Below are positions 2,456 to 35,382 of a DNA stretch of 35,546 nucleotides, one piece after another (position 1 is the stretch's first letter; each line of letters begins with the position of its first letter). Source of the stretch: Jimgerdemannia flammicorona (taxonomy: Eukaryota); the NCBI GenBank assembly GCA_003990765.1, contig RBNJ01000248.1, positions 1-35,546 on the forward strand. The letters are read 5' to 3'. Under the pieces are notes generated by a model, which did no database searches, was not told where the DNA came from, and worked only from the letters and a program-made list of their open reading frames with translations. Both the position numbers and the translations under genes were made by a program.

Positions 2456-2469
2456 CTAGAATACACTCT

Positions 2470-5340: not shown

Positions 5341-5344
5341 TAAG

Positions 5345-7350: not shown

Positions 7351-7685
7351 GAGTCCTCACTCATTTCTTAGCAGATTGTATTGAGTTGAATTCAGCCCCT
7401 TCAGATACCTTCTGCACTTATGTATCAGGGTATTTTGAACTGCATAAAATATATGAGAATTCCGATTTCTTTGCTGGATCGAATGTACAGTGTGGGTTAC
7501 AATGAAAACTTGGACATATTGAACTTCTACATCTGATGATGAAACAGTGTTAACATTCAATCAACAGCACTATGTAAGGTAAATATAAAGAATGTAACAG
7601 ATATTAATGACTACAGATCTTGGTACAAAACAATGACGGTATTCATATCGATAAGTAATGGCCTATCCATCCGTGATTTCATCAT

Positions 7686-12072: not shown

Positions 12073-12652
12073 GTTCTGTTTGGGATGATTTCGACTGTGG
12101 AAAGAATCCCTCTGTTTTGTATATCTGAATCATGGCGCAGCATTGACAAGGTTGGTGCTGTCAAAGTATAGGATTGAAAATAGGAATTCAGATCGATGCA
12201 TTTTGTTACAGCTTTGCACGTCACTTACGTGCTCTGGGAAGACTGGCGTGTCGACTCACTCAACTCCGCTGTGAAAGGGTCTCGTTATATTTTTTTTATA
12301 TTTTTTGCAATCATGAACGACAGCAGCTCCGAAAGCTCGGTAAGCATGGCGAAATAAAAGGAAGCCAACCTCGCTCTCTCCAATAGTATCATCTATAGTC
12401 ACACAAATTTCCACCCAACACGCAAGTACTCCACATTGCATCTTTATTGTCATCGCAAAAAAGCATCTTGGCCGTGCTCACCCGAGCTAAATCCGTCAAC
12501 AAGACTACCGAAACGACGTTACATGTCTTCCTGTAGAGCATGGCCACCAAAATCGCAAACTTCAGCGACACCGCTGGCTTCCAGGGCCAGCCCTATTCCG
12601 TCGAAGCCTGGGCTCAGTGTAATGAGTTTTATTGAATAGTGAAATGTTATCC

Positions 12653-12691
<39 letters not shown>

Positions 12692-13543
12692 CCCCTTTTG
12701 CTCGTAGACCATCGACGGCGAGAACCAGAACTACAGAGTCTGTAAGTACTTCGTTGCCAATAACCTAACTGTGGAAATTTCGTATATATACGTTTACAGT
12801 TTTATACTAAATATGGTCTTTGAGATCGCACTGTAATTTGCTTTATATAGTCGTGCACCTAAACTTTGGAACCGGTGGAATTACACCAATCTCCGTGTAT
12901 TCTTGTGCGCCCATCAACTAAACAAATGGCCACTATCAAGATGGCTATCTCAAGCAGCCCATACCTCATAATTCACCTTTTCTGTATACATAGTCTATTT
13001 TATAAGTGTATACCACCTACATTTCCGTGTACATATTGAACTTTGATGGGTTTTCTGCGAGAGATTTATTGCTGGAGCAAAAAACAGCGTGTCATGCATG
13101 AGTGTAATCAACTCGCTCACCTTTTCAATATCTTGCGCAATCGGTTGAAAAAACCAAAGTATATTAAAAGGGGGGAAATGGTGCCACATGACACTTCGGC
13201 ATGATCCAAATTGGGCAAGAGGTCGTGGAAGTGATAGCCCATGTGGCTGAAGTCCTTTCAGTAGGTATTTATCAAGCATCGGCCTGTGCAACGAGATAGA
13301 AGAGGCTACACATCTGGGTCTTGATGGATGGCAACGTCACCAGGTGTAAGACGGATGGCTTGCGCAGTTGATCTACGGTCTCGCGAAACAGGGCTCTACT
13401 AGTACCAAACACAAAACTGAATGCAATGGGCGTTAGCTACGATGTAATAACTGGGTAGGTTTGTGCGCAATTTAACTAGCAATTTATCTTTCTATATCAA
13501 TTCGTATAAATATTTCGTTCTCGTTCAAAATAGATTGGACTTA

Positions 13544-13960
13544 CAGAATCGATTCATTGTCCAAATTGCAATCCATAAAATTTCACATATGGGAAAGTGC
13601 TTTCCCATAGTAACATATTTTTCAGGATTAGCAGCTGGCTGTTGCCAAAAACAAAATAAAGTAAAATCATACATCCCATCAGAATCGATTCGTTCAAATT
13701 TCAATCCATAAAATTTCACATATGGGAAAGCGCTTTCCCATAGTAACATATCTTTCAGAATTAACAGCTGGCTGTTGTCAAAAAGACCAACAAAATAAAA
13801 TAAAATAAAATAGAGTAAAATCATATATCTCATCAGAATCGATTCGTTGTTCAAATTGCAATCCATACAATTTCACATATGGGAAAGTGCTTTCCCATAG
13901 TAACATATTTTTCAGAATTAACAGCTGGCTATTGCCAAAAAGGCCGGAAAATAAAATAAA
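13544..13960. repeat. Three tandem ~130-155-bp units, each with a 22-bp palindrome TATGGGAAAG-(T/C)G-CTTTCCCATA
   Basis: Units start at 13544, 13680 and 13834 with CAGAATCGATTC. Palindromes at 13588-13609, 13721-13742 and 13878-13899. Confidence 0.9.
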
Positions 13961-14129
13961 AAGGTTCAACATATATGTAAATAAGCAGGGATCGGAAAGA
14001 GGCAAAAAATACCTAAGCGAAATAATGCATGTCTATTCTTTGCAATAAGCGATGTCATTTACATGACATGTGAGCCTTGAGAATATACCAAAAATCCTTG
14101 TCAACAAAAAAATAAAATAAAATAAAATT

Positions 14130-15533
14130 CTACGCATGCGGTTTATCCGCGTTAGGATCATCATTTCTCGGCGAAGACGAACTAGCATTATTGTTCCTCG
14201 GCGACACGTTATCGCTATCCCCCGTCGACACGACGTTCTGCCATGCCCCGCCCACATTCCGGATCGTTGAGATGGGCGGCGGCAATGGCGGCTGTTGGGG
14301 TCTCTGAGTGTGTGGCATCATTTTTTGCGGATAATAGGCGGGGGTGTAGAGCTGTTGAGTCTGATAAACGTCGGCGCCGCCTTCGGCCGGGTATGGCATG
14401 AAGAATTGCTGTTGCTGCGGGTACGCGAAGGGGTTATCGGAGGGATACGGCGTCGTAGCGTTCGGTTGCGGTGGGTGGTACAAAGTAGATTGGTTGTTGT
14501 GTGGGGCGGACGTCGTGCTGATGGCGTTGGGTGAGTTACTTTTGAGCGTTGGGGTGTGGGGGATTGGCGAACGGTCCGGTTTCAATCCGGTGCTGGCGAG
14601 GTTCACGGTTGGCGAGACGACGGGTGAGTTCCCCGAGAGGTTGGGATCTATCGTGGGCGGTAGGTAGCTCGCAGAATCCGTCTCCTGTAGGTGATAATTA
14701 TTGGTATTGATATTTTTGTTTCTATTTCGGACGATGATGGCGAACACCAGAGCCGCGACCGCAAGGACACCAGTTCCACCAACCACAATTCCGGCGATGA
14801 CAGCCGTGGAAAGGGGACTACCTGTTCCTTCGCTAACGGCGGCCACGGACGGTTTGACGGTAGCGATTGGCATGACGGTAACGCCGATTGGCGCTGCGAC
14901 AACCGTTCGTAGGGCCCCCACGCCGCACTGGATATTGCCCATTTTAAAATGGGCGAGGATCATGTATTGATCGGGCTGCGATAGCGAGAAGTCGCCAGAC
15001 TCCCACGTCTGACCAGGGAATCCATACAGGGAGGGCGACCCCGTAACGAGAATGCTTCCCGAGGAACTATTTTGAGGTGGGATCCAAGGCAGACATTCGC
15101 TCCTGTTCATGAATGTCATGGAGCAGAAGTGCCAGTTGAGGTGGGGAACGCAGCAAGTGGCGTTGGAGATAGGCGGGATACAAGCGGCTTGTGTCGGGTT
15201 CTGCGGGTTGACATGCCTTAGGCACAGCTGGCTGAACTCTACGGACGCGGGGTCGGGCAGGAAGCCATTGTTGCTAGTGTAAAAGTTGTTCTGAAGGTTC
15301 AGCCGGACGGTGGAATTGATGGGTACATTGGCAGTGAGCGTGGCGGGAAGCGGGTTGACGAAGCCAAAATCGATCCCCGCGATTGACACGAGGGAGGGGG
15401 TCGTCGCGTCGCCGTACGAGGGAACGGTGAAGCAGGCGACGGTGTTCTCGTCGCCAAGGATCCAGGGAGCCGTTTGGGCAATTGCGGGCTGGGCGCACAG
15501 AAAGAGGAAGAGCAGGAATGTGGTAATGACCAT
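14130..15533 (-). CDS. Uncharacterised type I single-pass membrane protein (467 aa)
   Basis: Intact intronless ORF: signal peptide (MVITTFLLFLFLCAQPAIA), Cys-containing ectodomain, S/T/A stalk, TM helix (AVIAGIVVGGTGVLAVAALVFAIIV) followed by basic RNRNK, and a P/Q/Y/S-rich tail. Confidence 0.85.
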   Translation of the reverse strand: MVITTFLLFLFLCAQPAIAQTAPWILGDENTVACFTVPSYGDATTPSLVSIAGIDFGFVNPLPATLTANVPINSTVRLNLQNNFYTSNNGFLPDPASVEFSQLCLRHVNPQNPTQAACIPPISNATCCVPHLNWHFCSMTFMNRSECLPWIPPQNSSSGSILVTGSPSLYGFPGQTWESGDFSLSQPDQYMILAHFKMGNIQCGVGALRTVVAAPIGVTVMPIATVKPSVAAVSEGTGSPLSTAVIAGIVVGGTGVLAVAALVFAIIVRNRNKNINTNNYHLQETDSASYLPPTIDPNLSGNSPVVSPTVNLASTGLKPDRSPIPHTPTLKSNSPNAISTTSAPHNNQSTLYHPPQPNATTPYPSDNPFAYPQQQQFFMPYPAEGGADVYQTQQLYTPAYYPQKMMPHTQRPQQPPLPPPISTIRNVGGAWQNVVSTGDSDNVSPRNNNASSSSPRNDDPNADKPHA

Positions 15534-17238
15534 TTTTCCTGTTCCTGGTATTACTTGGGTGGCTGTACAGAACTGTGTTGGTAATGCGATTCAATTAGCC
15601 AGGATGTGGTATATATGGATTCCCTTGGAGAGCTGCGCCTCTGGCACTGTTTGATGAATTGCGCTGACGCATTTTTTTTTTTCTTTTTCATTTTCTTTTT
15701 TCTTTTTCTTTTTGCTGCGCGAATACTTTGTGATGAACATTCCATTTGTTCCATTGCAAGCTATTTAAGATGATCTATTGATTCGATTCATCTCCTATTT
15801 TTGGTACTGCGCCATCATTTCACACACGTGGCTCCATCTGTGACTTCGCTCAGCCACACTTATACTGGGTAGAATATACATTTTCGAGGACATGAAATCC
15901 GTAATATATTGAGAATATAATTATGAGCATGATTGGATCCAGCTCTGGGTGGAAGTGACGTGTAGGTGGCGGAACGAAGGAGTACTGGCGCTCACGCTCT
16001 ATCAAAGATTTTCTTACTGAACGAGCCTTGGCAATATGGTAACGGCGCCTTCCCAGCCGGCAACAAGCGCATTACGATGATCAGATAGGCAGGCAGTTGT
16101 AAATGCCCCCCCTTCCTTCCCTGCTCGTACAAATAATGTGGTAGTTGGATAAATGGGTTAGAAAGGAGCGGCGAGTTCCAAAACAGGCGACCCCGGCAAG
16201 GTCTCGGACTTACCGGCGGGGACTGTCGCACAGCGAATTGGATCGACGCCTTCTCTGCTTTAAAAGGGACAATGCATGTAAACACTCCCGCGTTTCTCGG
16301 CATTGGTCACTCGCAAGTGGGATACGGTTTTAGTCATTGAACACACTGTGTTAAGGGTATGACGGGGTTTGAATTCCTTGACAGAAGGCCCTTCCTGTAT
16401 TTAGCGCTCATGTGGTCGTGGCATCCGTCACTACTCCCAAACCAGAATTAAAGCCGAGCAAACAAATCATTGGTGGGAATGAAAAAGGAGGTGAAATTGG
16501 TCACAAGTATGTGCATGCGACCTATTGTACGATGTATTGGAAATGGTCAGAAAAACAAAAGGGGGAGAGCAAGAACTAGCGACGGCCTTTCTAGAATCAA
16601 AGGTCACTAAAGGGGTTCGCAGTGAGCGAATAAGGGACTTGACGAAAGTGAATTTCGGACGGATATGCTGGTGGGCGTCTCATTATAGATGACAATTGAG
16701 CCTGTTGTCATATTTTTATATTTTTGTACCTAATGCTGTCTGTGAGATGGCGATGCTCGGGGGGGGTTTTTTTTTTTTCCTTTCGGATATGCTGTTCCTG
16801 ATGTTTCGACAAAAAAACCGTCCGCTGCGGCCGATTTGGCCAGGGTGGCCGATTTTCATGAACGCCAGCCATAAAACCTAAGGCCGAGGAGGGGGTTAAT
16901 GCATTATTTGCGACTTGCATAGGATAACTGTAATCGCACCCTTGCATCGACATGGCACCCTACCATTAATTTTTGAAGCGTCAAAAGCTATAGAGTGGTC
17001 GCGAGATTTCCACACGCTGAAGACCCCTTGACGATAACCACGATAAGGACGACCTACGTGTCCAGCGAAATAATATATATATATATATACATGTTTGGTG
17101 GCTTGTAAGTCTGGTAAAACCAATCAAGTATCAATGAACCCAAACGACTTAAAGAATAGGCACCTCTAGCATGTGACCCCCATTACCAGTTTCACCGCCC
17201 TGATAACGTTTCCCCACTTGACCCCACCAACAATCCGA

Positions 17239-18891
17239 TCACGTCCCTCCACCGCCAGCCAAAGGCTTTCTCCCATACGCGAAATCGATATAGATATACG
17301 TCTTATGGCTCGAAAACTCGTCCGCCGCGTCGTCCACCAGCTTGTCGTACTCCTCCTCGGTAATCCCCATAGCCATCAACATGTGCGGTTTCATCGCCCC
17401 GAAGAAGCTCTCCGCATTCTATTTAAGAAAGTGCGGAAATGTTAGAATGCGGAGGAAATGTCTATAACTCGGCTTTAATATGGCACACTTAGGTGTATGT
17501 ACCTTCCGCGACGCCTCGGCGATCTCGGGTGGGCCCCATCCGAAGGGTAGCGAGCACTGGTCTTGGATAACGTCCTCGAGTGAGGCGGCTCGGAGCATGT
17601 GACCAAAGTTAGAGATATAGCGCGGATCAACGTCACGCAAGTTCATCATTTCGTGGGCTGCGCAAAGGTGTTGAGGAAGTGAAAGATCAGGGTGTTGTTT
17701 TCGTCTGAGATGCCCAAGGGATGATGCGCAGGAGCCTCTGTTTACCTTTGCTGTAGTACTCGGTAGTCCGTGGGCCGCCGCTATGTGGCCAGCCCTCTGA
17801 GTCGACTTTATAGAATGAAAGGAAAGAAAAGAAAGAAAAAGAGAGAGAGAGAGAGAGACAGAGAGAGAGAGGACCAATTAATCAATTCTATTATTTCAGG
17901 CGTATTCAACCACCTAAGCATATTCCTATACAATCCCACCCATACTCACTCAGCTCGACCCACCCTCCAGGTTTAGTGACCCTCACGAGCTCCTTGATGA
18001 CAGTGGGCCACTCGTGAACCCGAAAACTCGCCGTCTGGAATCGCTGGAAGGCGTAGTCAAACGTGTTGTCCTCGAACGGAAGGCCCTTGAGCGTGTCGCC
18101 TATCTGGAAGCGACAGTTTTCTAGCTCCAGTGGTAGAGATATCTTGTGTATGCCCACGATGTCTGTGCCAGTGAATTCACTTTGCGGGTAGGCTTGCGCC
18201 ATTTCCTGATGGGAAGGAAGGTTTACGGATGACTTGAGTTGGTTGTGATTCGCTATATAGCAGCACCTGTGCTTGTGAAGCTTTGTCAAACCGTGGTGCG
18301 TTTCGCTAGTAATGGTAAAATCAAACCTACAATTGACCAGACTCCGGTTCCGCAACTAATTAAAACATCCACATTGGTCATAATTTATTACGCGTCTTAG
18401 CAAATTAACTTAATTCTCATAAAACGGGTGGAATACCTACCCAGCGTCCAGAACCTTGATACCGCGCTTAAGATGCTTTCGCACCGGCGCCATTTGGTTT
18501 CTAAATAAACGGGATCATGAACAACGGGCATTGTTTTGCGAGCGAACTCACACGAAATAGTTGTTGACTTCCCTACGTACCCGTTTAAAACAAACCTAAG
18601 GCCAAACCCCAAGCCAAAAGTTAATCAGTCAGCAAGCACAATTGCCGTCCGTAACAAACCACCAGCGTAATCATCTAACACTCACCGTATCAAATAATGC
18701 TGCAGATTCAAGCGGCTCGCCTCGGAATCATCGCATGGCAACGGGTACGCGCTGTTCCCCTCCATCTTGAACCCCCTTCCGCTCTGCCACTTAAATCCAG
18801 CAGGAAGATCAGACACCACCGGTTGTGGTTGCACCCAGTCGCGGTCGGACGTGCCTCGCTTCCTACGAACTTTGGAAATCGGCTGGCCCAT
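17239..18891 (-). CDS. Class I SAM-dependent methyltransferase (fungal LaeA-like/Methyltransf_25 type), 318 aa, 8 exons
   Basis: Exons 18891-18686, 18595-18581, 18500-18441, 18355-18331, 18205-17950, 17805-17746, 17657-17503, 17418-17239, all with GT..AG introns, sum to 957 nt in frame. Motifs: YPLPCD.SEASRLNLQHYL, VLDAG|CGTGVWS (motif I), FTGTDI, GLPFEDNTFDY, ELVRVTKPGGWVEL, AYGRKP. Confidence 0.92.
17841..17871. repeat. (GA)n microsatellite in methyltransferase intron 5
   Basis: Directly visible GA run with one CA interruption. Confidence 0.9.
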
Positions 18892-20004
18892 CGATGGTGA
18901 AAGAAACGAAGTGAACACCGCATGATGCAACCTCTGTTTGGCCTATTATGTATGGGCGGATAAAAACCGGAGAATTGAGAACCCCGAATTGCGACTCTTG
19001 GAATTTCGGGCCGTGGCGCGGCCGAACAGTAGTGCGACGTTGTCGGAGTACGTGGGAACAGCTTTAGATCGGATCGGTTGACAGCACTGACCACGAGGAG
19101 GCTCCTAAACCAACCCGTCATGTGCGCTATACCACCAAGTGTCGATCGTGGTTGGTGGCGTAACGTGAGAGCTTACGCTTTTGGAAGAAATACCAGTCTC
19201 TCGGGCACGCCACCCTCATGACAAACGACACCGGGTGGAACCCGCATATGCCCGTTGAGAGCAGGGTCCGAAGTGGCCCCTGTTCGACAGGTTTTATATA
19301 AGCTCTCAAAGGGAGGAAAACAGAGAAAACAACCCACTTTGTTGCCAGCATCCCTATGCACTACACGGTGTTATACTCCTTATCGAGGTTATTCATTAAG
19401 CGGAAGCCACGAATACGGAATTCCCAACCTGAGAACCAAACGTATGATGCCCGCGAGTATATACGCTGAATGATCCTTAACTGCGATGGGCCGAAATCGT
19501 GTGCCCATATTGGAAACATACCATGCAGCGGAGACAGGGTCCGAGCTATTAGTTTAATAAAGACATCTTGAGGTTGGTGGAGAGCCACCCACACCGCAAC
19601 CCAATCAGCTATATTATATATAATCCAGGACAGCATCAAATCACCATAATAATAGACACAAATAGATTTGGACCACCAAAACTGCCAGACCATATATATC
19701 AACCCAGACAAATAAGGTTTTACTGGAAAATTATGTCGTGCAATGGAACACAGGTTTCACTGGGAAATTCAATGACGTAATACACAATTCAAAGATTGCA
19801 AGAAGACCAAGGCATGATAACAAAAAGTTGTATCTCGCTGCTTGCGGATTCAGGAAAAGAATTACACTTGTACTCGCCAAATAGTGACGTGGTTTTTATT
19901 TTATTTTGTTTTTACGTTCAGCCGCCAACATTCATTTTGATGTAACATAAAAAGAGGCAACCAAGGGATCGCCGGCAGTAATCCTACTGGAAAGCTTCCC
20001 TAGG

Positions 20005-21735: not shown

Positions 21736-22218
21736 GTATAGTTCTTCCTTCAAATATGTCAGATTCTCTTTAAGGTATATCTCTTAGACTAACTCAAGTT
21801 TGTTATAAGCAAGTTCTTATTAGAGTGTCTTTCTAAGGTCTTATAGTCCTCAAACTTCTTATCTTTAAACTGTCTTGTTATCTCTTAGATTGCTTGCAAG
21901 GAAGTGTATATAAGTAAACTTGACTGACTTTATTTCAGAAAAAATAAGAAGGATATTTATATAAAATATAATTCAATAATTACTAAGATATAAAGCTAAA
22001 TATAAATTCCAATAATCAAATAAAATGCTGAAATATAGAAAACTGCCAAGTTTCAGGGTCAGTATGGATGGTTGCACAGATTTAAGATACTGGTATAATT
22101 TTGGTAATATAGAAAAATAGTGCTGGAAAAATTCTAAGTTACAAGGTCAGAATATTAGTAGAGGAATAGCTGTTATATAAGAAAAGGATGCTGGCATAAT
22201 TTAGTGTAACTAAGAGAC

Positions 22219-23451
22219 TTAGAGCAGAATATTCAGAACTACAAGAGCTTTATCCTCATCATTACTATTCTCAAAAAAGATAAGGTCTACAAATGTTTCA
22301 GTCTTATTGCATAGGTTATATATTTTGTATGCTTCATATCCCTTTGTCTGTAGATAAGATTGTCTTTTAAAATCATTTAGCAGACAAATTAAAGTTTGAA
22401 AAAAATGATTTTTTGAAACATTGTTTTTCTGTTAAAAAAATATCTCAATTTGTTTAAAAACAAATTTTTTTTTTTTTGTAAAATTTTTACCAAAGGTAGA
22501 ATTATTATATAAAAAATTATTGGTAAATTTTTTTTTTAAAAGCTATTATGATTTTAAAAGTTATAAACTTTTAAAATCTTATCTCTAAATATAGGTGCAA
22601 AACAGTCAAAGAGATATATTATGCAGAATGACATCATTGCTAATGATGTCATCACATTTGGCAGTAGTGGGAACAAGGAGGTCTGGGGCTCTCCAGTCTA
22701 TGAGGTTCTCTTCTACAAAATAGGGAACAAATGTGGAGTCTTGGGGAGGTCTAACCTAGATACTTGGGCCTTGGAATACTGAGATCAATCCTTGTAGAAA
22801 TTGATCTGGGTTGTCCTGGAGAATAGGATGTCAGAAGTCTTCTACTTCATTACTATTGAGAGTGATAGTGGACTGAGCTTCTGTAGCTACCCTGGCTTCT
22901 AGTACATTGATATGGCAGGCTGACAGATCTCTAAAATCTGAGACTCTAACATACTCCAAGTTGGGGATCAACCATGATGCATACCTGAAGATCTGATGAA
23001 TCTTCTTAGCTGTCTTTATTTTATATATATCTATAGGAATGGTATCTTATAACTCTTAGAGGCTGGTCTGTGGGAACTCCTGGCAGAGAAGGTTTCCTAT
23101 TTCATACTCCTGTTATATTTAGAGGTATTCAGTAGCAATGGTGATTCTTGTTTCCATCTTATGGTAGTAGAGAATAAAGTGATAAAAATCTGCAGTACCC
23201 AGGTTGAAACTAGGAGTCCTTCTTATATGGGTCCTCATGGCTCTTCTGATGTCTTGGAACATCTTTTCTTCAACTGAGGTACCTTGGTGATTCCTTGACC
23301 TTGAGGTTTGGCAAGCAGCAGGCATTTCATTTGTGGTAAGTCTTTGAGCTATTTTGGAATTAGTGGGTCTTATTGAGTTGCTACTACTGTGATTCCTTGA
23401 TCCTTTTTTTATATTTCTCAAGATGCCTAAACTGTGGTCACAATGACTCAC
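22219..23451 (-). pseudogene. LTR-encoded ORF of unknown function, 3' LTR copy (MITE-interrupted)
   Basis: Same frame as 30737-29781. All but one of its stop codons are CAA/CAG/TGG in the other LTR. Confidence 0.65.
22340..22613. mobile_element. 274-bp MITE, consensus termini CCCTTTGACTG...CAGTCAAAG(A/G)G, AT target duplication
   Basis: Absent from the homologous site in the other LTR (~29898). Comparison with the empty site gives a 2-bp AT TSD. Second copy at 30936-31207. Confidence 0.88.
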
Positions 23452-23578
23452 AGTTAGTCATCATTACTCATCTCATAGCCTGAGTTATGCCATATGATCT
23501 TCTTGTGTTCTGATCTGGTGGCTTGCAAGAAAAGGCTGTCTCTTGTGCTGATGTCATTATTCTGAGATTACTATTACA

Positions 23579-23619
23579 TCTTTCTCCTGAATAAGGATCT
23601 TCTTGAATATCCTTATTCA
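23579..23619 (-). promoter_or_regulatory. Polypurine tract (AGGAGAAAGA) preceded by an 11-bp-stem hairpin
   Basis: PPT 23588-23579 abuts the LTR TG. Inverted repeat TGAATAAGGAT (23588-23598) / ATCCTTATTCA (23609-23619). Confidence 0.8.
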
Positions 23620-23944
23620 TTGGTCTAGTTTTAAAATATTTGCTGATCCCATAACCTCTGGCAAGGAGTCAAAAAGTGGTATTTATGGGCTGGCATCTTC
23701 CTTATGTATTTTGGTATAATGGTGAAGGGTTACTCCCTTCATATAGAGCAAGGGCCTGATTCTGATCTTGATCAATCAGTTGATGGTTTGAACTTCTCTG
23801 GCTTCAAAAGTCTCACAGATGAGTAGTTGCTGGTGTCATATTCCTTAGAAAATGGTCCAGACAGATAGCCTGCTGGTCATGGAATATGCTGTTGTGATTC
23901 ACAGACTAGAACCTTGTGGGCAGTCATCACATTTTACTTCTCTT

Positions 23945-26900
23945 ATATAGATTTATGATACTTCTTAAGTCTATTCCTATGTACTATAGTAGGTAATATA
24001 GTCTCTGAGATTTTTCTAAGCCAGAAGGTAGTTCTCTTGATATCTTACATGTAGAAGGGTCCTTCCCATTTGGGCTCCAGTTTTCATGATCATGAGGCTT
24101 CTATTATATTTTGATACAGTAGGACCTTTTCTCTGATTTAGATGAGTTCTAGGATCTTGTGATTCTTTTCTACATTCTTCCTTATCAGTACTTGTGACTT
24201 GATGATGTAATCTTCAGCCTTCTTTCTGATTTGGTATAGCCTCCATATTTCTGCATTAACTTATCTCCAAGTTAGATCTTGATTTATGGCTGAGGTTTTA
24301 TCAAAATCTTCTTCTCTGAAGAGCAGTTCTCTTGAGGTAAAGTGTGTGCTCTGTGACCATATATCTCATAGAACAGAGAGGGCAGTTGAGAGATAGTTAT
24401 CCCAATTCTTGTACATATGTCTCTGAGATCTTTGCCAGGATGTTCTTGAGGGTTTTATTGGTTCTTTCTGTTTGTCTATTTCCTTAAGGGTGGTACATGG
24501 TGGTCTTGATGTACTGAATCTTGTATTTCTGATATATTATCTTATAGAATCTATTGATAAATTCTGTGCCATGGTCTGTAGTGATTTGCCTTGGTATCTT
24601 ATAGTAGCAGATGATTTCTTGGTACAGGAAGTCAGCTATAGAGAGGGCATTGGCTTCTTGTAATACTCCTACTTCTATCCATTTGGTAAAGAGATCTACA
24701 ATAACTATAATATAGTAGTTTCCTGATAGTATTACTAGTAGTAGCCCAATAATATCCATTGTGATGTGGTAGAAGGGGATAGGCTCAATTCTTAATGACT
24801 CAGATATTTGGTCTTACTGATCTTGTTTCTATTTTTGGCACTTATTATACCCTTTGACAAATTGACACAAGTCTTTTTCTATTTTGGGCCACTACATAGT
24901 TCTTCTTGCCTTGTTGTATATATTGGTTCCTCCTAGATATCCTTGTTCATATACTTCCTTCATTACTTGATACTTCTTGTGTTTGGATATTATAAGCTTT
25001 TCTCCTTTTCTGAGTGTGGTGTTATCTAGTTCAAACTGTTTCTAAGTCTGGTTGATGATGGTGATTATCTAGGGTTCAAGGTAGTTGGGCATCTTTTGCT
25101 GCCTAAGATAGCTGATTAATCTATAGTATAACTCCTTATCATATTAAATAGTCTTGATAGGGGTGTTTTAGAGTATTCTTGAGAGTGCATCAGCATTGAT
25201 ATTGGTTCTCCCTGAGTGGTGCTTAACAGTACAATCATACTCTTGCAGCCTGTAGATCCATCTGGTATATATTCCTTTTGGAGTTCAGAGTGTGGAACAG
25301 CTAGGCAAGAGCAGAATAGTCTGTTTAAATAGTAAAGTATTTTCTGACTAGATAGTAGTAGAACTTGTCTACTGCCCAAACTACTGCTAAGCATTTAAGC
25401 TTGTATGACTTGTAGTTCTGTTCTGCTCTATGGGTACCTCAGTTTAGATAGGAGATAACATATTTATATTTATCTTTCTTCTGAGCTAGGACTGCTCCAA
25501 GTCCTATAGTACTTACATCTATCTGTAGGATGAACTCTAGGTTCCAATCTGGTCTTCTGAGGATAAGTGCTTGGGTTAATCTGGTCTTGAGTCTATTGAA
25601 GATTTCTTGGCATTTCTTGGTCTATTTAAATTTGGTCTCCTTCTTCAGTAGCTCGTAGATAGGTGCTGCAATATTAGAGTATTCTTTGATGAATCTTCTG
25701 TAGTAGGAGGCCAGTCCAAGGAAGGCATGGACTTCTGTAGTTATTCTGGGTCTTGGATAGACTGCAACAGCCTCAATATTTATGGAGTCTATATGTATTC
25801 TAGTCTGGTTAATGAGATATCCTAGATAGGTAATTTTCTGAGCTGCAAACTTATATTTCTTGGGCTTGATGTAGAGGCCATGCTTCTTGAGCTTCTTGAG
25901 AGCTAGCTATATGTGGTTGATATATTCCTGTATAGTATTACTGAAGATGATCACATTATCAATATAGATAAAGAGCCATTTTCTAATCTCATTACTGAAG
26001 ACTCTGTTCATCATTCACTGAAAACTTGCTGGGGTATTGTACATTCCAAATAGCATTCACAGGTAGATATAGGTGGCATTAGGTGTGATAAAGGCTAATT
26101 TCTCACTGGTATCTTGAGTGAGACCAATCTGATAGAAGCCTGAGAATAGATCCAAGGTGGTGTAGTATTTGGCTTTACTTCCAAGAGTAGTAAGAATTTC
26201 TTGAATATTTGGCAAGGGCTATCTATCCTTCTTGGTAATTGTATTGAGCTTCCTATAGTCAATGCAGAGTCTTGGTACAAACTCTCCAGGTTTACTTTCT
26301 TTCTTTGGAGTAAGAACAATAGGTGAAGCCCAGAGAATGATAGCTTGCTTGATGATTCTGACTTCTTCCATTTCCTTGAGTTCTGCTCACAGCCATTCTC
26401 TGTAGGCAGGTGGTATAGGTCTGGCTTTCTGGTAGATGGGCTTGGTATTACTAGTGTCAACTTTATGATAGTACTTAGGTTCTTGATTGTGGATTTCCCA
26501 AAATCTGTGGCAAGTACTTCTTCATTCTGATGCAGGATCTTGAGAAGTTGTTCTTTTAGGGGAAAGTTTTCTCCAATGATATATATGTACTTATTCTGAT
26601 CCTTGTCTTTCTTGTACTCAAGTTTAGTAATCTTGGTGGCAGCATAGGCTCCTCTTCCAGTATATCCAAAGCCTTATTCTCCTCTCTTAGTCTTGATGAG
26701 TTTGATGGCTTCAGTGATCTTGGGCTTCTTGATTTTATAGATTAGCATCTGGTCAATTCTGTCATGCTTCTTGACTTTGAATGGGGTGGTGGGTTGTGAT
26801 TTCTGACTATGAGGAAGATCTTGCCAGTGTAATTAGGGTCAATTACTCCTCCTTCAACTGAGATTTTGCTTTTGGTCAGACTGCTCCTGATCTTGATAAT

Positions 26901-29162
26901 TCCAGTATAGTTCTCTAGCAGCTTGACTCCAATTCCAGTACCAAGTAGAGTAGTAGTCTATGGTTCAAGAGTAGCATCTTGAATGCTGGCAAGGTTTATT
27001 TCTATAGCTTCTTCAGTCTTGTATTCTGGGATCTTGGCTTCAGGGTGAAACTTCTTAACCTTGAGGGTAATATCTAGTTCTTGTTTCTCCTCATCATCAC
27101 TGTCAGCTTATAGCTCTGGGGGCTGGTCATCTTCTTTGGCTTTCCTTTTTGCTTCAGCAGCTTCTTACTTATACTTCTGTTGGTGGATTTTCCTGACTTC
27201 ACTGATATAGGACCAGCAGTCATTCAGGTATTCAGAGCAGTACATTCTAGTACCATGGGGGTATCTTTCTTGAGAGACATAGCCATCAATGATCTTATTG
27301 TACTACTGCTTATCTGTGAGCTTAGGTGTCTTGTTCTTATTCTTATTCACCAAGTACATGAAGACTTCTGTGTCCTCTTTATCTTCTTCCTCTATATCTG
27401 GTAGAACTCCTTTGTGGATATTGATAGAGACTTGTACCTTTCTTCCTCTATAGTTGATCTGTATCTTCTGGGCATTGAGATCAATGATGGCCTTGGTCTT
27501 GTGAAGCCATTGGTTGCCAATGAGGATATCATAGTTGGTGGTGCTTATAATAATTACATCTACTGAGATGATAGCTCCTCCTATCTTAATAGAGACTTCT
27601 CAGATTTTGCTAAGGAGGATAGCTTATATATCATCTACTGTGACATAGATCATCTTGATAGACTTTTCAATATCCCAGCCTAGGCAGTCAATTGCCTTCT
27701 TGCTTATGAGGCATTCTCTAGCACTGGTATCAATGATGGCATCAAAGATACAATCTTTGATCTGATATAGAGTATAGGCTGATGTCTTGTACTGGTCTTC
27801 AGATTCTTTACCTGAGTCTTCTTGATCATCTTCTTATACATTGTGAGCTTCTACAATCTTGTACTCTTAATTCTTGGTATTAGTTGCAAGTTCTACTCTT
27901 AACTGCTATCTGAAGGCAGAAACTTCAGCTAGCTGTCCAAAAGTAACATTGATCTTCTGTTTCTTGAGATTCTTGTAGATATTATATTAGTGGATCTTGG
28001 TCTTATATAGCTTCTGTTTCTTCTTGCTTTCACTTTCTCCTGAGACTGAAGTAGTGTCTTCAATAATTTTACAGATAGCTTTCTCTAACTCTATGTCTTG
28101 ATCAATCTCCTCAGATTGGGTCTTGCTTTGAATAGTGATAGTTGGGGTCTTCTTTGGTCTTCCAACTGGCTTACTGTTGCTCTTCTTATCATAGGGCTTG
28201 GACTAGGTTCTGGTACCTTCAGTAGTAGGGTAGAATTTAAGCTTCTCATAGTATTCTTTATTATCAGTATTACCAATCTCCTTGATGACTACTGTATTGG
28301 TTTGTTCTCTGGTTCTACTAGTATTGCTTAGTTGGGCTTTGCATCTTGTTTCAGTTATGCAATTCTTTGCATAGTGGTCTTTTTCTCTATATCTGAAGTA
28401 TATGATATTATATTCTTCTATAACAGCTACAAATCTCTATACTGGTCTCTTGTTGGTGCTTCAGACTTCTCTAATAACATCACTAAGGTGTGCAGTCATC
28501 TCAGCAAACTACTTGGCAAGTTCCTCTACTGGGTCAACTTTAGTTGCCTTGGGGATAGGTGGAAATGGTTGTCTGTTTATAACTGTGGTGGGTATGATAC
28601 TAGTTGACTTTGATAACTCTATCTTGATGCTAGTTATTTTCTCTATTGAGTGTTTGGTGGGGTGTCTGGTAGTCTAATATCTCTATGCAAAGACCACTTT
28701 CTGATCAAGAGTCAGTGCAGCTGGGGTAGACCAGATTGCTAGGACAATTTCAGGGTGAACTCCTTTGAGAAAGGTTGAATCTGCTATTTGTTCCTTGAGG
28801 TGGTCATTACAGCCAGCCAAGACAATCTGGTGATAGATTCAAGTATAGAATGAGTTGGGATCTTCACTGAGTCTCTGGCAGATAGTATTGAGTTATTACT
28901 TGAGAGCTTGCTTGATCTCTTCAGTATAGTATGTTGTTCTGAGAAAGACCTTCATGTTGGCAAGTTTGGCTGTATCAGCATTAGCAATGATGGCTATATT
29001 GAACTTGTCTCTGATAAGTCCTCTGAGGCTGACTGGTAGAAGGGCCAATTGTGCATCTATATTAAGAGCTTATATAGCAGCAAATTGTTCAAAGTCTTCA
29101 ATGAAGATCAGGATTGACTCTTCAGTAGTATATCTATAGAATATGGGGGGATATATTTCCAT
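23945..29162 (-). pseudogene. gag-pol of the Gypsy element (many stops and some frameshifts)
   Basis: Gag starts MEIYPPIF (ATG 29162). Knuckle (C)FR(C).EK.HYAKNC ~28350-28400. Protease AIIDTSA (27720-27740). RT FIYIDN (=YIDD, 25955-25966). RNase H FILQ.D.S..GLGAVLAQ (~25485-25535). Integrase VDLFTKWIE, TDHG.EF, YHP, WEGPF (~24055-24070). Confidence 0.9.
26650..27068 (-). pseudogene. dut: Trimeric dUTPase domain between protease and RT
   Basis: All five motifs readable on the minus strand: LKVKKFHPEAKIPEYKTEEAIEINLAS (I, AGxDL eroded by transitions), YTGIIKIRSSL (II), EGGVIDPNYTGKI (III), KKHDRIDQMLI (IV), TKRGE*GFGYTG (V). Confidence 0.9.
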
Positions 29163-29212
29163 CTTATCTTGAATTCTTACAGAGGTGACTCTTGTAGTCA
29201 GGGTAGTTATTG

Positions 29213-29282
29213 TGGTAGTTGTTCATTTTTTAGCTTAAAAGTGAGGAATTCATCTTGAATCACCAGCTAATGGGTACCAAGT
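29213..29282 (-). promoter_or_regulatory. Primer-binding site and conserved leader of the Gypsy element
   Basis: ACT then TGGTACCCATTAGC (TGG at 29279) directly after the LTR-terminal CA. A near-identical 69-nt block lies at 32491-32559. Confidence 0.85.
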
Positions 29283-30864
29283 TGTCACATAGTTGTCACT
29301 GAGTCCTTCAAATATATCAGATTCTCTTTAAGGTATGTATATCTCTTAGACTAACTTAAGTTTGTTATAATCAAGTTCTTATTAGAGTGTCTTCCCAAGA
29401 TCTTATAATCCTCAAACTTCTTATCTTTAAACTGTTTTATTATCTCTTAGATTACTTACAAGAAAGTATATATAAGTGAACTTAACTGACTTTATTTCAG
29501 AGGAAATAAGAAGGGTATTTATATAAAATATAATTCAATGGTTACTAAGATATAAAGCTAAATATAAATTCCAATAACCAAATAAAATGCTAGAATACAG
29601 AAAACTACCAAGTTTCAGGGTTGATACAGATAGTTGTATAGATTCAAGATGCTGGTATAATTTTGGTAATATAGGAAAATAGTGCTGGAATAATTCTGAG
29701 TTACAAGGTCAGAATGCCAGTAGAGGAATAGCTGTTACACAGAAAAAGGATGCTGGTATAATTCAGTATAACTAAGAGACTTAGAGTAGAATGTTTAGGA
29801 CCATAGAGGCTTCATCCTCATCATCACTGTCCTCAAAGGAGATGAGGTCTGCAAACATTTCAGTCTTATCATATAGGTCATGTATTTTGTATACTTCACA
29901 TATATTGTGCAGAATAATATCATTGCTGATGATGTCATCATATTTAGTGGCAGTGAGAATAAGGAGGTCTGGGGCTCTCTAGTCTATGAGGTTCTCTTCT
30001 ACAAAATAGAGAACAAATGTGGGGTCTTGGAGAGGTCTAACCTGGATACTTGGGCCTTGGAATACTGAGATCAATCCTTGCAGAAATTGATCTGGGTTGT
30101 TCTGGAGGATGGGATACCAGAAGTCTTCTACTTCATTACTATTGAGGGTAATAGTGAACTGGGCTTCTGTAGCCACCCTGACTTCTAGTGCATTGATATA
30201 GTGGACTGACAGATCTCTGAAATCTGAGACTCTAACATACTCCAAGTTGGGGATTGACCATGGTGCATACCTGAAGATCTGATGAATCTTCTTAGCTATC
30301 CTTATTTCATATATATCTATAGGAATGGCATCTTGTAACTCTTGGGGGCTGGCCTGTGGGAACTCCTAGTAGAGAAGATTTCCTATTTCATACTCCTACT
30401 ATATTTGGAGACATTCAGTAGTAATGGTGATCCTTATTTCCATCTTATAGTGGTAGAGGATAAAGTGATAAGGATCTGCAGTACTCAGGTTAAGGCTAGG
30501 AGTTCTTCTTGTATAGGTCCTTATAGCTCTTCTGATGTCTTGGAACATCCTTTCTTTGACTGAGGTGTCTTGGTAATTCCTTGACCTTGAGGTTTGGTGA
30601 GCAGTAGATATTTCATTTGTGATAAGTCTTTGAGCTATTTTGGGATTAGTGGGTCTTATTGAGTTGCTGCTACTACAGTTCCTTGATCCTTCTTTTATAT
30701 TTCTCAAGATACCTGAACTATGGTCACAATAACTCATAGTTGGTTATCATTACTCATCTTATAGCCTAAGTCATGCTGTATGATCTTCTTGTATTCTGAT
30801 CTGGTAGCTTGCAAGGAAAGGCTGTCTCTTGTACTGATATCATCATTCTGAGATCACTGTTATA
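29283..30864 (-). repeat. 5' LTR (1582 bp)
   Basis: Minus strand T(A/G)TAACAG...ATGTGACA, followed by the PBS. Direct repeat of 21746-23578. Confidence 0.92.
29781..30737 (-). pseudogene. LTR-encoded ORF of unknown function (~318 codons), 5' LTR copy
   Basis: Track ORFs 30399-30737 and 29979-30245 are in one frame that continues to TAA at 29783-29781. It has only four internal TAGs, three of which are CAG/CAG/TGG in the other LTR. Confidence 0.7.
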
Positions 30865-30935
30865 ATAGCTAAAGTTGAGATATATAGAATACTAAGTGAA
30901 TTCTTCTTAGTATTACTAAAAGGTCTAACTTATAT

Positions 30936-31207
30936 CTCTTTGATTATAGATAAGATTGTCTTTTAAAATCATTTAGCAGACAAATTAAGATTTGAAAAAA
31001 ATGATTTTTTGAAACATTGTTTTTCTGTTAAAAATATATCTCAATTTGTTTAAAAACAAATTTTTTTTTTTTTATAAAATTTTTACCAAAGATAAAATTA
31101 TTATATAAAAATTATTAGTAAATTTTTTTTTAAAAGCTATTATGATTTTAAAAGTTATAAACTTTTAAAATATTGCCTTTAAATATAGATGCAAAACAGT
31201 CAAAGAG
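30936..31207. mobile_element. Second copy of the ~273-bp AT-target MITE
   Basis: Aligns end to end with 22340-22613 and is flanked by AT on both sides. Confidence 0.88.
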
Positions 31208-32552
31208 ATACAATAGATCCATATTTTTCAAAAATCTTAAATAGTCTAATATAGTAGAGTCTAAGCTTTTTTTTAAGTTTATATTATCTAGAGTTAAATA
31301 TTAGGTACTAAGTAATACTTGTTCTCCTTTTTCATAAGTAACTTCTCTTTTATTTTTATCAATATATACTACTTATATTCTTTGTACCTCCATAAGAGTA
31401 TTTCATACTTACTAAATGTTATTTTATATAATATCAGTAATTTCTTATATAGCTGATACTATGGTTTGAGTGGCAACTATAGAAGTTTGTAGATATTGTC
31501 CATAGTTCAGATAAAATAATATCATTTTGATACTTATACTTAAGCTATTATTATATATAAATTTGGCTAAAATCAGTTTATTATCTCACTTATTTTATTT
31601 ATAGTTACAATAGATACTAAGTATCTACTTTAGAGTTTGATTGATTCTTTCTGTCTAACTATCTATTTGTTGATAATATACTGTAAATATTTTTAGTTAT
31701 ACTCCTAGACTCTTGAAGAGTACTTATCAAAAGTTATTTATAAATTTTGTATCTTAGTCTAAGATAATTGCTAATAGTAGTCTATAAAGATAGAATATAT
31801 TATTAATAAATAACTATATTATTTCTAGTACTATTACAGTAGTAGTTATTGTAATAAAGTAAGTTTACTTACTAAGGTAATTAATAAAAACAATAATTAT
31901 ACCTCTTTCTTTCTTAGTTTTTGACAACTAGATAATAAAATCCATTCTGATATAGTTTGAATTTTAGATAGGAATTAATGGTAGCTATAGTATGTATACC
32001 AGCTAGTGCCTGGTTGCTAAACTTATATCTTTGGTAGATATAGTAGAATATAATATAATTCTTGATATTAAATATCATTTTTGATCAGTAAAAGTTTTGG
32101 ATGATATATTGGTATATCTTGTTAAATCTTATATATTGTGATGTATGGTATGAAATAGAAACAGGAAATAGACATTTGATCATAGTATCTGAATCCAATT
32201 TCCGATTTAGTATAGTCTTTTACTGCGGACACTGCATCTAAAACATTATCAGTGAAACTCTTGTTACTTTCACAAATTTCAGATAGGATTTCACATGAGA
32301 TTCTACCTGAGAATTTCATATGAAAAGACTTAATACTTAGCCACATATTTAGTAGCAGAATTAGCGCACAAATCTGTATAAATAACTCAGTATTTTAGAG
32401 TGAATAAACCTCAGTCAGAATGAGTCAGATCAAACCAGTCCAATTCCAAAATCCATCCAACTTACTAAATTCTGTGTCCACTACATTACAACTTGGTGCC
32501 CATTGGCTAGTGATTCAAGATGAATCCTCACTTTTAAGCTGAAAAACGAACA

Positions 32553-32661
32553 ACCACCAGACCGCCAGACCGCCAGACCACCAGACCGCCAGACCGCCAG
32601 ACCGCCAGACCGCCAGACCGCCAGACTGCCAGACCGCCAGACTGCCAGACCACCAGACTGC
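32553..32661 (+). repeat. 8-bp tandem repeat (CCGCCAGA)n, ~13 copies
   Basis: Directly visible. Variants CCACCAGA and CTGCCAGA are CpG transitions. Confidence 0.92.
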
Positions 32662-32681
32662 CATATAGACCACCATATTGC

Positions 32682-33147
32682 ACATGGTGTTTGTCTGCAC
32701 CATCTGCTGTTAATTACTTGTTCTGGTTGTCAGCCTCATTTCTGTGAACTGTCGTCAATATTGAACAATAGATGCTCTGCAAAGGACCGCATCATTGAGT
32801 TAATAGCCGGGTCGCTCCTTAGTTCGAGGGACAATATTACAAGAATTAATCGCCGAAAAATGCCGAACAAACCATCATGCCGAATAGACCGCTGTACGGA
32901 CCACAAAGAAAACTGCTGTACGAACTATTGCTACCCGAATTTTGAAGACATTGTTTGTCTGCGCTATCTGCTGTTAATTGGTTATTCCGGTTGTCAGCCT
33001 CGTTTCTGTGAACTATCGTCGGTATTGAACAATAGACGCTCTGCAAAGGACCGCATCGTTAAGTTAATAGCCGGGTCGCTCCTTAGTTCGAGAGACAACG
33101 TTACAAGAATTAATCGCTGAAAAATGCCGAACGAACCACCATGCGAA
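32682..33147 (+). repeat. ~200-bp internal direct duplication (32682-32884 vs 32948-33147)
   Basis: Both copies share TGTTTGTCTGC...CTCTGCAAAGGACCGCATC...GCCGGGTCGCTCCTTAGTTCGAG...AAAAATGCCGAAC. Confidence 0.88.
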
Positions 33148-35382
33148 ACGCCACCACCGCCCGACTTTTGAAGAATGTCCCGCGACATACGAATGGACCG
33201 CCATCGAGAATAGAACATACGAACTGTCGTCTGACTTTTGATGACATACGAACGGAACGGACCACCCAGGAGAATTAAAAGACGTTGCCCGAGTTAATTA
33301 TTTGAAGAATGCCACCCTACTTTTGACCACAGAATTGAAGACGTTGTATATGAACTGCCCGAGTGAAGAATACCGTCATCCGACTTTTGACGACATATGA
33401 ATGCCTATGACATACAAACATCTCCCGACATACGAATGGACTGCCACGGAGAGCTGAAGACATCATATATGAACCATTCGAGTTAATTATTTGAAGAATG
33501 CTGCCCGACATACGAACGCCTATGACATCCTGGAGAATTTGAAGACGAGCCGCCACCCGATTTTTGAAGACCCTGTCACCCGAACCGTCACCCGAAACCG
33601 CTGTCCGAATTAATTATTTGAAGACTTTTGAAACCTCGAATAACATTTTAACAATTGCCTGGATATATCATAAATATGTCCATGTAGGGGGAACAAATAT
33701 ATAAACATTGCAATGTAAGAATTTGAATAGGTATTTTTGTGTCAAAAATAACCTATTCAGGGGGAAGATGTGACGTATGGTATGAAATAGAAACAGGAAA
33801 TAGACATTTGATCGTAGTATCTGAATCCAATTTCCGATTTAGTATAGTCTTTTACTGCAGACACTGCATCTAAAACATTATCAGTGAAACTCTTGTTACT
33901 TTCACGAATTTCAGATAGGATTTCACATGAGATTCTACCTGAGAATTTCATATGAAAAGACTTAATACTTAGCCACATATTTAGTAGCAGAATTAGTGCA
34001 CAAATCTGTATAAATAACTCAGTATTTTAGAGTGAATAAACCTCAGTCAGAACAAGTCAGATCAAATCAGTCCAATTCCAAAATCTATCCAACTTACTAA
34101 ATTCCGTGTCCACTATGTTACAATATCTAGCTATAGATATATCATATAGTTCTTATGGGATTTATAAGTAGATAGAGGTATTAGAGATCTAAATTCTTAT
34201 ATTATTAAGTTATAGATCTTCTTTATAATGTGTTTCCTTTTTTGAGGATTTATTTAGCAATTTCTTATATATTGATATCCTTGGTATACTCTTTCTTAAC
34301 TTCTTTAAAAGACTGGTGATAATATTGCTAATTGCAGTAAGATCATTCTTCTGAGTACTCTAAGAGAGTATATTAGCTATTTTATTCTTAGTTCTAGTAA
34401 TATACTTGATTTCATTATCAAAGAGTATAAGGATCTACATCTATCAGATCTGTCTTTCTATAAGAATTAGCTATATCTGGATATATCAGAGGTCTTGATA
34501 ATTTGTCCATAAGGTAAATTTTTTGTTAAAGAGAAAATATCTTTATATTTTATAGAGATCAGATGATAGTGAAGAGTTCCTTATCTTATATAATATAGTT
34601 TCTTTTATATTTATTGAGTTTCAAAGATAGGTAGATAACAGAGTATTTATATTGAGTCAGAACAGCTCTAATGGTAATATTTGAAGTATTATTAGTATTT
34701 ATAAAGAGTTTTATTAAATCAGAACTAATTAAAATTAGTATATTAGTCAGTATTCTCTTAAGAGTATTCATGACTATAGTGTATCCTTCTGTTTATTCAT
34801 TTTTGACATTAACTCCTATTCTGATGAGACTTGTGAGTAGAAAGGCAATTATGGAGAATTTTTGAATAAATCTTTTATAATATCCTACTAGTCTATTGAA
34901 TCCTTATAAAAACTCAAGAGTCTTCAGAATAAGTTAATTATAGATTGTTTGGATCTTCTTAGGATTGATAAAAATACTATTTTCTGAGATAATGTATTCT
35001 ATATATTTGATTTTCTTCTTGAAGAAGTAGTATTTCTTCCTTTTTGCTAAGAGTTTGTATTTATGAAGTATGTCAAAAATCATTTATAAATATTATTAAT
35101 AGATGATATACCAGAATATCATCCAGATAGACCAGAATAAATATTTTAAGATATTTATAAAAGATATTGTTCATCAGTATTTGAAAGATTACTGATATAT
35201 TAGTAAGGTCAAATAGTATTATACAGAATTCATTATATCCAAATCTTATTTAAAAGGCTATTTTGGAGATATCTTCTTTTTTGATATAAATTTAGTAATA
35301 TTTAGATATATATAAGATTGATAAGTGAAAAGGTCTTAGCCTTATATACTTAATTAAGTAGTTTATCAATTTATAGAAGTAT

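Follow-up and report, generated by a model that had tools for sequence, protein, structure and literature searches.

A small non-coding LTR retrotransposon that shares its primer-binding site, leader, polypurine tract and LTR tips with a dUTPase-bearing Gypsy element in Jimgerdemannia flammicorona

Whose machinery moves a retrotransposon in which no protein-coding region can be detected? The question is raised by a contig of the fungus Jimgerdemannia flammicorona (RBNJ01000248.1 of GenBank assembly GCA_003990765.1), of which positions 1 to 35 546, the whole stretch of 35 546 nt that we analysed, are called the window here. Near the right end of the window lies a small element bounded by long terminal repeats (LTRs), and to its left, in the opposite orientation, a much larger and degraded Ty3/Gypsy element that bears a dUTPase domain. 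An earlier note, made from the letters of the window alone, had read the small element as a parasite of the dUTPase-Gypsy lineage. We find that it is a real integrated LTR element sharing with the dUTPase-Gypsy a primer-binding site (PBS) with its adjoining leader, a polypurine tract (PPT) and the LTR tips, and that it is probably one copy of a multi-copy, non-autonomous family mobilised in trans by the dUTPase-Gypsy lineage or a close sibling of it.

Shared blocks and anatomy of the two elements

The most telling block directly follows the 5′ LTR of the small element. Positions 32491–32559 match the reverse complement of 29213–29282 with six mismatches, all of them transitions, and one 1-nt gap; realignment reproduced exactly what had been noted before. 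In BLASTN the match reaches a further 20 nt into the ends of the LTRs (32471–32559 versus 29302–29213, 90 nt, 85.6%), with an E-value of 7e-22 in a self-search of the window and 6.7e-21 when the small element is compared with the large one. A transition-tolerant 32-nt pattern for the PBS region finds only these two sites in the window, and 0 of 100 shuffles matched it. Under purine/pyrimidine coding there are no transversions in the 69 nt after the LTR versus 4 in the 20 nt of LTR end, and so the LTR tips beside the leader carry real transversions, unlike the leader itself.

The edges of the shared block are sharp: one is the LTR/PBS boundary, the other the start of a microsatellite (32559/32560), and over the 120 nt past the block similarity is not above that of shuffles (260/500). 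In the large element about 50 nt more of leader follow the block before the gag ATG, which lies about 120 nt from the LTR, and the block therefore accounts for more than half of that leader. The PBS, TGGTGCCCATTGG, begins 3 nt past the 5′ LTR, and its TGG fits the CCA end of a tRNA; the letters against which tRNA 3′ ends would be compared are TGGTGCCCATTGGCTG. There are no tRNA genes in the window. An exact 31-nt leader pattern had 0 matches in a genome-contig collection and 0 in a viral-contig collection. A metagenome locus (L001) that came up with the transition-tolerant leader pattern was rejected as an AT-only chance match, unlike both elements.

At the far end of the interior the polypurine tract AGGGGGAAGA ends at 33768 and the 3′ LTR starts at 33769. 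The junction here, TATTCAGGGGGAAGA followed by TGT (33754–33768, then 33769), is two transitions apart from that of the large element, TATTCAGGAGAAAGA followed by TGT (23591–23577, then 23576), which bears out the match reported for the PPT junctions, both adjoining an LTR that starts with TGT. A 31-nt block on the PPT side has a BLAST E-value of 0.15 alone, yet it occupies the same place in both elements, and the 3′ untranslated region (UTR) ends of the two align with a score reached by 13 of 500 shuffles, the signal coming from the PPT block. The likeness of the LTR ends can be read directly from both elements. Their right tips are ACTATGTTACA and ACTATGTGACA, with ACTAYGTKACA in common (11 nt including one transversion, for a match of 11–12 nt), and the common left tip is TGTRACR (7 nt).

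Similarity stops at these blocks. Word-7 BLASTN of the small against the large element gives 16 rows, of which the leader row alone is clearly significant; the row pairing 33661–33713 with 24958–24906 (E 0.008) is AT-rich and not colinear, and was taken as chance. Transition-tolerant local alignment revealed no hidden homology between LTR and LTR (32 of 100 shuffles equal or better) or between interior and interior (8 of 40). Neither LTR starts (45/500 shuffles) nor LTR ends (151/500) show homology above chance. The LTR bodies (354 versus about 1583 bp) and the interiors are thus unrelated, as had been proposed: BLASTN and shuffle-tested alignments show nothing beyond the leader. Every sequence statement of the earlier note, on leader, PPT, LTR tips, sizes and unrelated bodies, holds on re-check. 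Coordinates are collected in Table 1.

Table 1. Features of the small element, its host relic and the dUTPase-bearing Gypsy element (window positions)
Feature	Position	Strand	Evidence or remark
Small non-coding LTR retrotransposon, 1986 bp	32137..34122	+	LTR pair 96.6% identical, TG..CA ends, PBS, PPT
5′ LTR, 354 bp	32137..32490	+	
Shared block: 3-nt spacer ACT, PBS starting TGGTGCCCATTGG, leader	32491..32559	+	Six transitions, 1-nt indel versus 29282–29213
8-bp microsatellite ACCGCCAG, 13.9 copies	32553..32663	+	Starts where shared block ends
Tandem duplication, 264-bp period	32675..33202	+	32675–32880 versus 32939–33144 at 88%
Degenerate internal repeats, 62–68% alike	33167..33624	+	
PPT block TATTCAGGGGGAAGA	33754..33768	+	Adjoins 3′ LTR; two transitions versus 23591–23577
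3′ LTR, 354 bp	33769..34122	+	
ATAT, left copy of possible 4-bp target-site duplication	32133..32136	.	Right copy 34123–34126
Older Gypsy relic hosting the small element, RT/RNase H part	34123..35380	-	Pfam RT_RNaseH_2, E 7.6e-8
Older Gypsy relic, continued, integrase-like part	31211..32136	-	
Degraded dUTPase-bearing Ty3/Gypsy	21746..30865	-	Pfam domains, LTR matches
Large-element 5′ LTR, about 1583 bp	29283..30865	-	
Spacer, PBS and leader of large element, 70 nt	29213..29282	-	
Large-element PPT block TATTCAGGAGAAAGA	23577..23591	-	
Large-element 3′ LTR with ~274-bp MITE-like insert (~22340–22613), damaged 3′ tip	21746..23576	-	

The LTRs of the small element run TGT...ACA and differ at 12 of 354 positions (3.4%), all by transitions; TATAAATA at 32377 and AATAAA at 32403 in the 5′ LTR are motif-level calls only. 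Its interior of 1278 bp is built of repeats, with about 1.2 kb of unrelated tandem repeats between the shared ends. The element is non-coding, in agreement with the first reading: Pfam searches in six frames (E ≤ 0.1) find no family in it, and tblastn against the large element returns the leader match only, with no protein likeness. A hidden coding region was considered and rejected: the longest open stretch, of 198 aa, runs through the microsatellite, which is in frame, and across the 264-bp duplication. Within this stretch the two 264-bp units differ mostly by amino-acid changes, and its one match in a large protein collection is a low-complexity repeat. A captured small-RNA gene of the Cassandra or Helenus kind was also rejected, Rfam giving 0 matches over 29000–34400 (E ≤ 1) and the window having no tRNA. 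Elements of the Tf1 type prime themselves. The complement of the first 11 or 13 nt of the PBS (up to 2 mismatches) occurs in none of the four LTRs, so self-priming finds no support here.

Integration was into an older Gypsy relic. Both flanks of this host are colinear with the pol of the large element and project to nt 4343 and 4330 of it at the insertion point; the insertion was therefore clean, with no host sequence lost.

The large element carries Pfam matches to RVP_2, dUTPase, RVT_1, RT_RNaseH, Integrase_H2C2 and rve across three frames. Their order along 29282 to 23577, gag, protease (PR), dUTPase, reverse transcriptase (RT), RNase H, integrase (IN), is the PR-(dUTPase)-RT-RNase H-IN order of Ty3/Gypsy elements with a dUTPase. 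This copy is dead: each frame holds 86–134 stops. Its LTRs differ at 183 of 1561 sites (11.7%), 181 of these being transitions. Among the protein matches listed, its nearest relatives include dUTPase-bearing metagenome polyproteins at no more than 47% identity, PF00692 occurs in 8 of the best 120 listed, and the named relatives of its RT, again among those listed, include Rhizophagus. As to the host, the sequence comparisons point to a fungus and to no narrower group: neighbours in a sequence atlas are mostly Ascomycota, with scores no higher than 0.79, and one partial match is to a Mucoromycota protein.

Copies in public sequencing runs

Thirteen public runs carry small shares of the element (at most 0.18 of its words). 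Contigs of four of them, from four studies (runs X1, X2, X3 and X5; the reading of X2 and X3 as RNA is a guess), were placed on 28900–34400 at 80% likeness. What follows draws on the part of the placements that was displayed (32 of 1997 pieces, 24 of 395 loose ends and 15 of 29 joints), and it should be read with two cautions: depth in contig runs is not copy number, and one of the runs may be the window's own source. All four runs cover the large LTR and the small element, with 1596, 123, 76 and 150 contigs placed.

The contigs confirm the structure of the small element and show variants of it. One X1 contig (record 8, 33595–33827) bridges the junction between interior and 3′ LTR with 5 differences in 233 nt. 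In two X2 contigs the end of the leader (32555, 32559) is followed by 35–39 other letters and then by the second 264-bp unit (32949, 32952), and these joints mean that there are copies in which the leader is kept but neither the microsatellite nor the first 264-bp unit is present. In one X3 contig a leader that is placed on the large copy (to 29220) is joined with the microsatellite of the small element (32593). Joints that skip 48–247 nt of the internal repeats in X2 and X3 point to copy-number variants.

In four X2 contigs the placement begins at 33769, the edge of the LTR, and the letters upstream of it are unlike (agreement 0.59), as different insertion sites would give. The small element is thus a multi-copy, dispersed family, even if one covering run may be the window's own source. 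A single-copy occurrence, which had been named beforehand as something that would speak against a parasitic family, is contradicted by contigs of all four runs, among which there are variants and differing flanks; the leader is a trait of the family.

Mobilisation and the origin of the leader

We infer mobilisation in trans, the identity of the helper and a role for the leader past the PBS, and the scheme we propose is as follows. RNA of the small element would be transcribed from its own 354-bp LTR, which would supply promoter and terminator, and the dUTPase-Gypsy lineage, or a close sibling of it, would provide the proteins that package, prime, reverse-transcribe and integrate that RNA. The shared LTR tips would serve the integrase, the shared PBS the primer and the shared PPT plus-strand priming. 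The roughly 50 nt past the PBS would act in packaging, through recognition by Gag and its nucleocapsid (NC), or form a primer-docking hairpin that holds the PBS.

That the leader does more than bind a primer is suggested by its length. An ordinary tRNA 3′ end can, by our reading of the sequence against tRNA numbering, presumably pair with a PBS of about 16 nt at most before the T-loop consensus fails, so the rest of the shared block needs another reason. The earlier note had offered a packaging or dimerisation signal, which may be right. Both leaders are predicted to fold alike, with a 5-bp stem between the start of the PBS and CACCA/UACCA at the end of the block enclosing a hairpin. Paired columns take five of the six substitutions, and none of the 20 predicted pairs is broken, one surviving by a G-C to A-U double change. 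This keeping of pairs is not significant, as random deamination keeps all pairs with P = 0.25 and yields at least one compensated pair with P = 0.19, and the predicted fold lends weak support to a structured signal.

Several observations weigh against mobilisation by the dUTPase-Gypsy lineage. The folding energies of the leaders are unremarkable (z from -0.87 to +0.91). The large copy is dead and also older, as judged by LTR divergence (11.7%, 183/1561, versus 3.4%, 12/354, in the small element). The repeat flanking the small element is only ATAT/ATAT, 4 bp, which is weak in DNA of 22–24% GC. In X2, the run with the highest summed depth over the small interior (depth not being copy number), depth is 0 over the bins with the start of the large gag and the leader (28900–29267), although the large LTR bins are covered. 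Some contigs of X1 and X5 match the small LTR only from 32375, the TATA box, onward, and some of X2 and X5 only up to 32414–32418/34046, in the predicted R region; each of these break points rests on 1–3 short contigs. Such partial variants mean that other LTR types share parts of the small LTR, and the true partner could be one of them; they also suggest a modular exchange of U3 and R-U5 from one LTR type to another.

Comparison with the five partner criteria given in PMC9744471 is likewise mixed. The two elements have the same PBS, the PBS regions differing by transitions only, and conserved LTR termini. Similarity between LTR promoters, another of the five, was not found (32/100 shuffles). 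The remaining two concern a population structure that matches and periods of activity that overlap; the LTR divergences of the two copies here are 11.7% and 3.4%. The original reading of the small element is largely right in kind: the absence of coding, the multi-copy state and the shared PBS/leader, PPT and tips are supported, and the element may be, as that reading had it, a parasite of the dUTPase-Gypsy lineage instead of an internal-deletion derivative.

How the two leaders came to be so alike bears on the choice between explanations. When each copy is assigned half of its own LTR divergence, leaders that were identical at insertion are expected to differ now at 5.2 of 69 sites; 6 differences are seen (P(≥6) = 0.42). 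In 5 of the 6 the large, older copy has A/T where the small one has G/C, which is the direction of C-to-T decay across all repeats here. Since the differences match the expectation from decay, the leaders may have been identical when the elements were active. Two histories fit this: strong constraint on an old shared leader, or a recent capture by template switching.

The second history is a variant of trans-mobilisation in which the small family gained its leader when RT switched between co-packaged RNAs, so that the block itself is recent. We regard it as possible, though on the doubtful side. The sharp edges of the block (the LTR/PBS boundary and the microsatellite start at 32559/32560) and the near-identical ancestral state of the leaders are in its favour, as are the LTR variants with break points at the TATA box and in the predicted R region, a pattern that strand-transfer exchange would produce. 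Template switching between families is described in PMC13570524 and PMC9744471. Against this, there are two leader sequences only, the variant break points come from 1–3 short contigs each, and strong purifying selection on an old shared leader would give the same picture.

A somewhat less probable alternative, which we hold to be unlikely without dismissing it, runs counter to a dUTPase-Gypsy helper: the small element would be mobilised by an autonomous sibling of its own with the same 354-bp LTRs, and the leader, PPT and tips would be signals conserved across a clade of related Gypsy elements. The window contains at least two more Gypsy relics (2469–7385 and 31211–35380), so several sibling families coexist. 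The LTR variants that share the U3 or the R-U5 part of the small LTR (32375, 32418, 34046) fit such a sibling, and 4 transversions in the last 20 nt of the LTR suggest divergence at the level of families. The small interior, however, has no trace of gag or pol. A leader without transversions, whose differences are fully explained by decay after insertion, is unexpected had the families diverged until their LTRs no longer align. The summed depth of small LTR versus interior bins shows no large excess in the four runs, a weak point because depth is not copy number.

More speculative, and in our judgement improbable as a whole, is an extension of the template-switching idea in which the leader would be a self-contained mobilisation cassette of about 70 nt, with the PBS held in a hairpin whose stem pairs UGGUG with a tRNA-end mimic, CACCA. 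Template switching would move the cassette between LTR families that are otherwise unlike, and the non-coding family that captured it would have filled its interior with CpG-rich tandem repeats and come to outnumber its helper in at least one related organism.

A local accident without function (gene conversion between neighbouring inverted elements, or an assembly artefact) could be imagined because the blocks are 3.2 kb apart and inverted, but it is very hard to credit: contigs of another run join the leader to the small interior (32555/32559 to 32949/32952, X2), matches are also present elsewhere, in the PPT block and at both LTR tips, and the flanking homology that a conversion tract needs was not found. 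Mobilisation in trans by the dUTPase-Gypsy lineage or a close sibling remains the explanation we prefer.

Genomic surroundings and known systems

The small and the large element, whose shared blocks are inverted and separated by 3.2 kb, are neighbours because both landed among decayed, nested Gypsy elements, and we see no functional reason for their closeness. The host relic of the small element (31211–32136 and 34123–35380) has 22–24% GC, is split between its RNase H and integrase parts, and stops abruptly at about 35380, where GC-rich sequence starts. A sibling Gypsy relic on the minus strand (2469–7385) has gag and integrase parts whose translations are 34–60% identical to the large element; no RT region was detected in it, and with its 5′ end gone it is silent on the leader.

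For the large element no target-site duplication is readable, and the 3′ tip of its 3′ LTR (21746–21800) fails to align with the tip of the 5′ LTR beyond ...TTTGAAGGA. An AT-rich element of about 274 bp, resembling a miniature inverted-repeat transposable element (MITE), is present in two copies (~22340–22613 and ~30936–31209) that are 93.6% alike and end in imperfect inverted repeats about 14 nt long, CYCTTTGWCTGT... The first copy lies inside the large 3′ LTR, the empty site being visible in the 5′ LTR near 29900, and the second about 70 bp outside the large 5′ LTR. Elsewhere, 7561–8877 and 10645–11849 are tandem paralogous GC-rich genes, 73% alike as DNA, the former reading as a BTB/POZ + SPRY protein with best relatives that are 39–44% identical, unnamed proteins.

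CpG is nearly gone from the old repeats, with 1 CpG in the 9120 bp of the large Gypsy and 0 in the host relic. The observed-to-expected CpG ratio is 1.05–1.12 in genes (7500–20000 compared) and 1.14–1.27 in the small interior (74 CpG), versus 0.32 and 0.53 in the small LTRs, where 10 of the 12 LTR–LTR differences are at CpG. By context, differences between the large LTRs affect 14 of 14 CpG, 60 of 158 CpA, 27 of 116 CpC and 8 of 150 CpT, with transversions at 0 of 109. It looks like a C-to-T process similar to repeat-induced point mutation (RIP) or methylation induced premeiotically (MIP) struck the LTRs of the small element and so far not its interior.

As everything else has diverged beyond alignment, the pair of elements marks the nucleotides that were kept: LTR tips of 7 and about 11 nt, 15 nt of PPT, and about 70 nt of PBS and leader. 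In the literature searched we found no packaging or priming signal of the dUTPase-bearing Gypsy lineage, and the leader offers a short, bounded candidate for one. The value of the locus lies in an annotated example from the Gypsy side in a fungus and in an aid to mapping, and it introduces no new principle.

Dasheng with RIRE2 and BARE2 with BARE1 are reportedly pairs in which a non-coding or gag-only LTR element depends on the other and has PBS, PPT and leader signals in common with it. [quoted passage not shown] LARDs exceed about 4 kb. With 1986 bp and LTRs of 354 bp the small element exceeds the TRIM size of <1000 bp given in PMC10886601, and falls between the two classes.

The large element has the PR-dUTPase-RT order of fungal Gypsy elements with dUTPase between PR and RT, such as PosPlaTy3-5 (PMC2864245), a likeness of domain order. 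For the pair, the closest parallel in a fungus is the Helenus element LTR-1_PTrit of rust fungi, the whole interior of which corresponds to 198 bp from the 5′ end and 12 bp from the 3′ end of the Copia-9_PGr interior (PMC10886601). It too is a fungal non-autonomous element with LTRs unlike those of its partner and with the PBS and PPT sides shared. The Helenus pair, however, is Copia, has a tRNA-like sequence in its LTRs and shares the entire interior of the non-autonomous element, as described there, whereas the partner here is a Gypsy with dUTPase, Rfam gives 0 matches, and the shared ends are separated by about 1.2 kb of unrelated tandem repeats.

The wheat elements Wilma, Sabrina and WHAM share little beyond PBS, LTR tips and one motif in the account of PMC9744471, and resemble our pair in having a Gypsy helper whose homology with its non-autonomous partners has shrunk to the PBS, the LTR termini and one short motif. 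The PBS of the wheat elements is identical, sequence next to it is poorly conserved, and their LTRs have a promoter motif in common; in our pair, by contrast, conservation continues for about 50 nt beyond the PBS, and the LTR bodies have no common motif. In sugar beet, according to PMC13570524, eight non-autonomous families are tied to partners by shared 5′ UTRs or internal regions with LTR similarity below 50%. Unlike LTRs and shared 5′ UTRs are the points of likeness, and short duplications inside elements, like chimeric families, are frequent there as well; the beet families are plant elements, and we claim no sequence relation between them and the small element. The arrangement of parasite and helper is thus already documented in plants and rust fungi, and what distinguishes the present pair is the dUTPase-Gypsy partner, the fungal host, a size intermediate between TRIM and LARD, the length of sequence conserved beyond the PBS and the tandem repeats that make up the interior.

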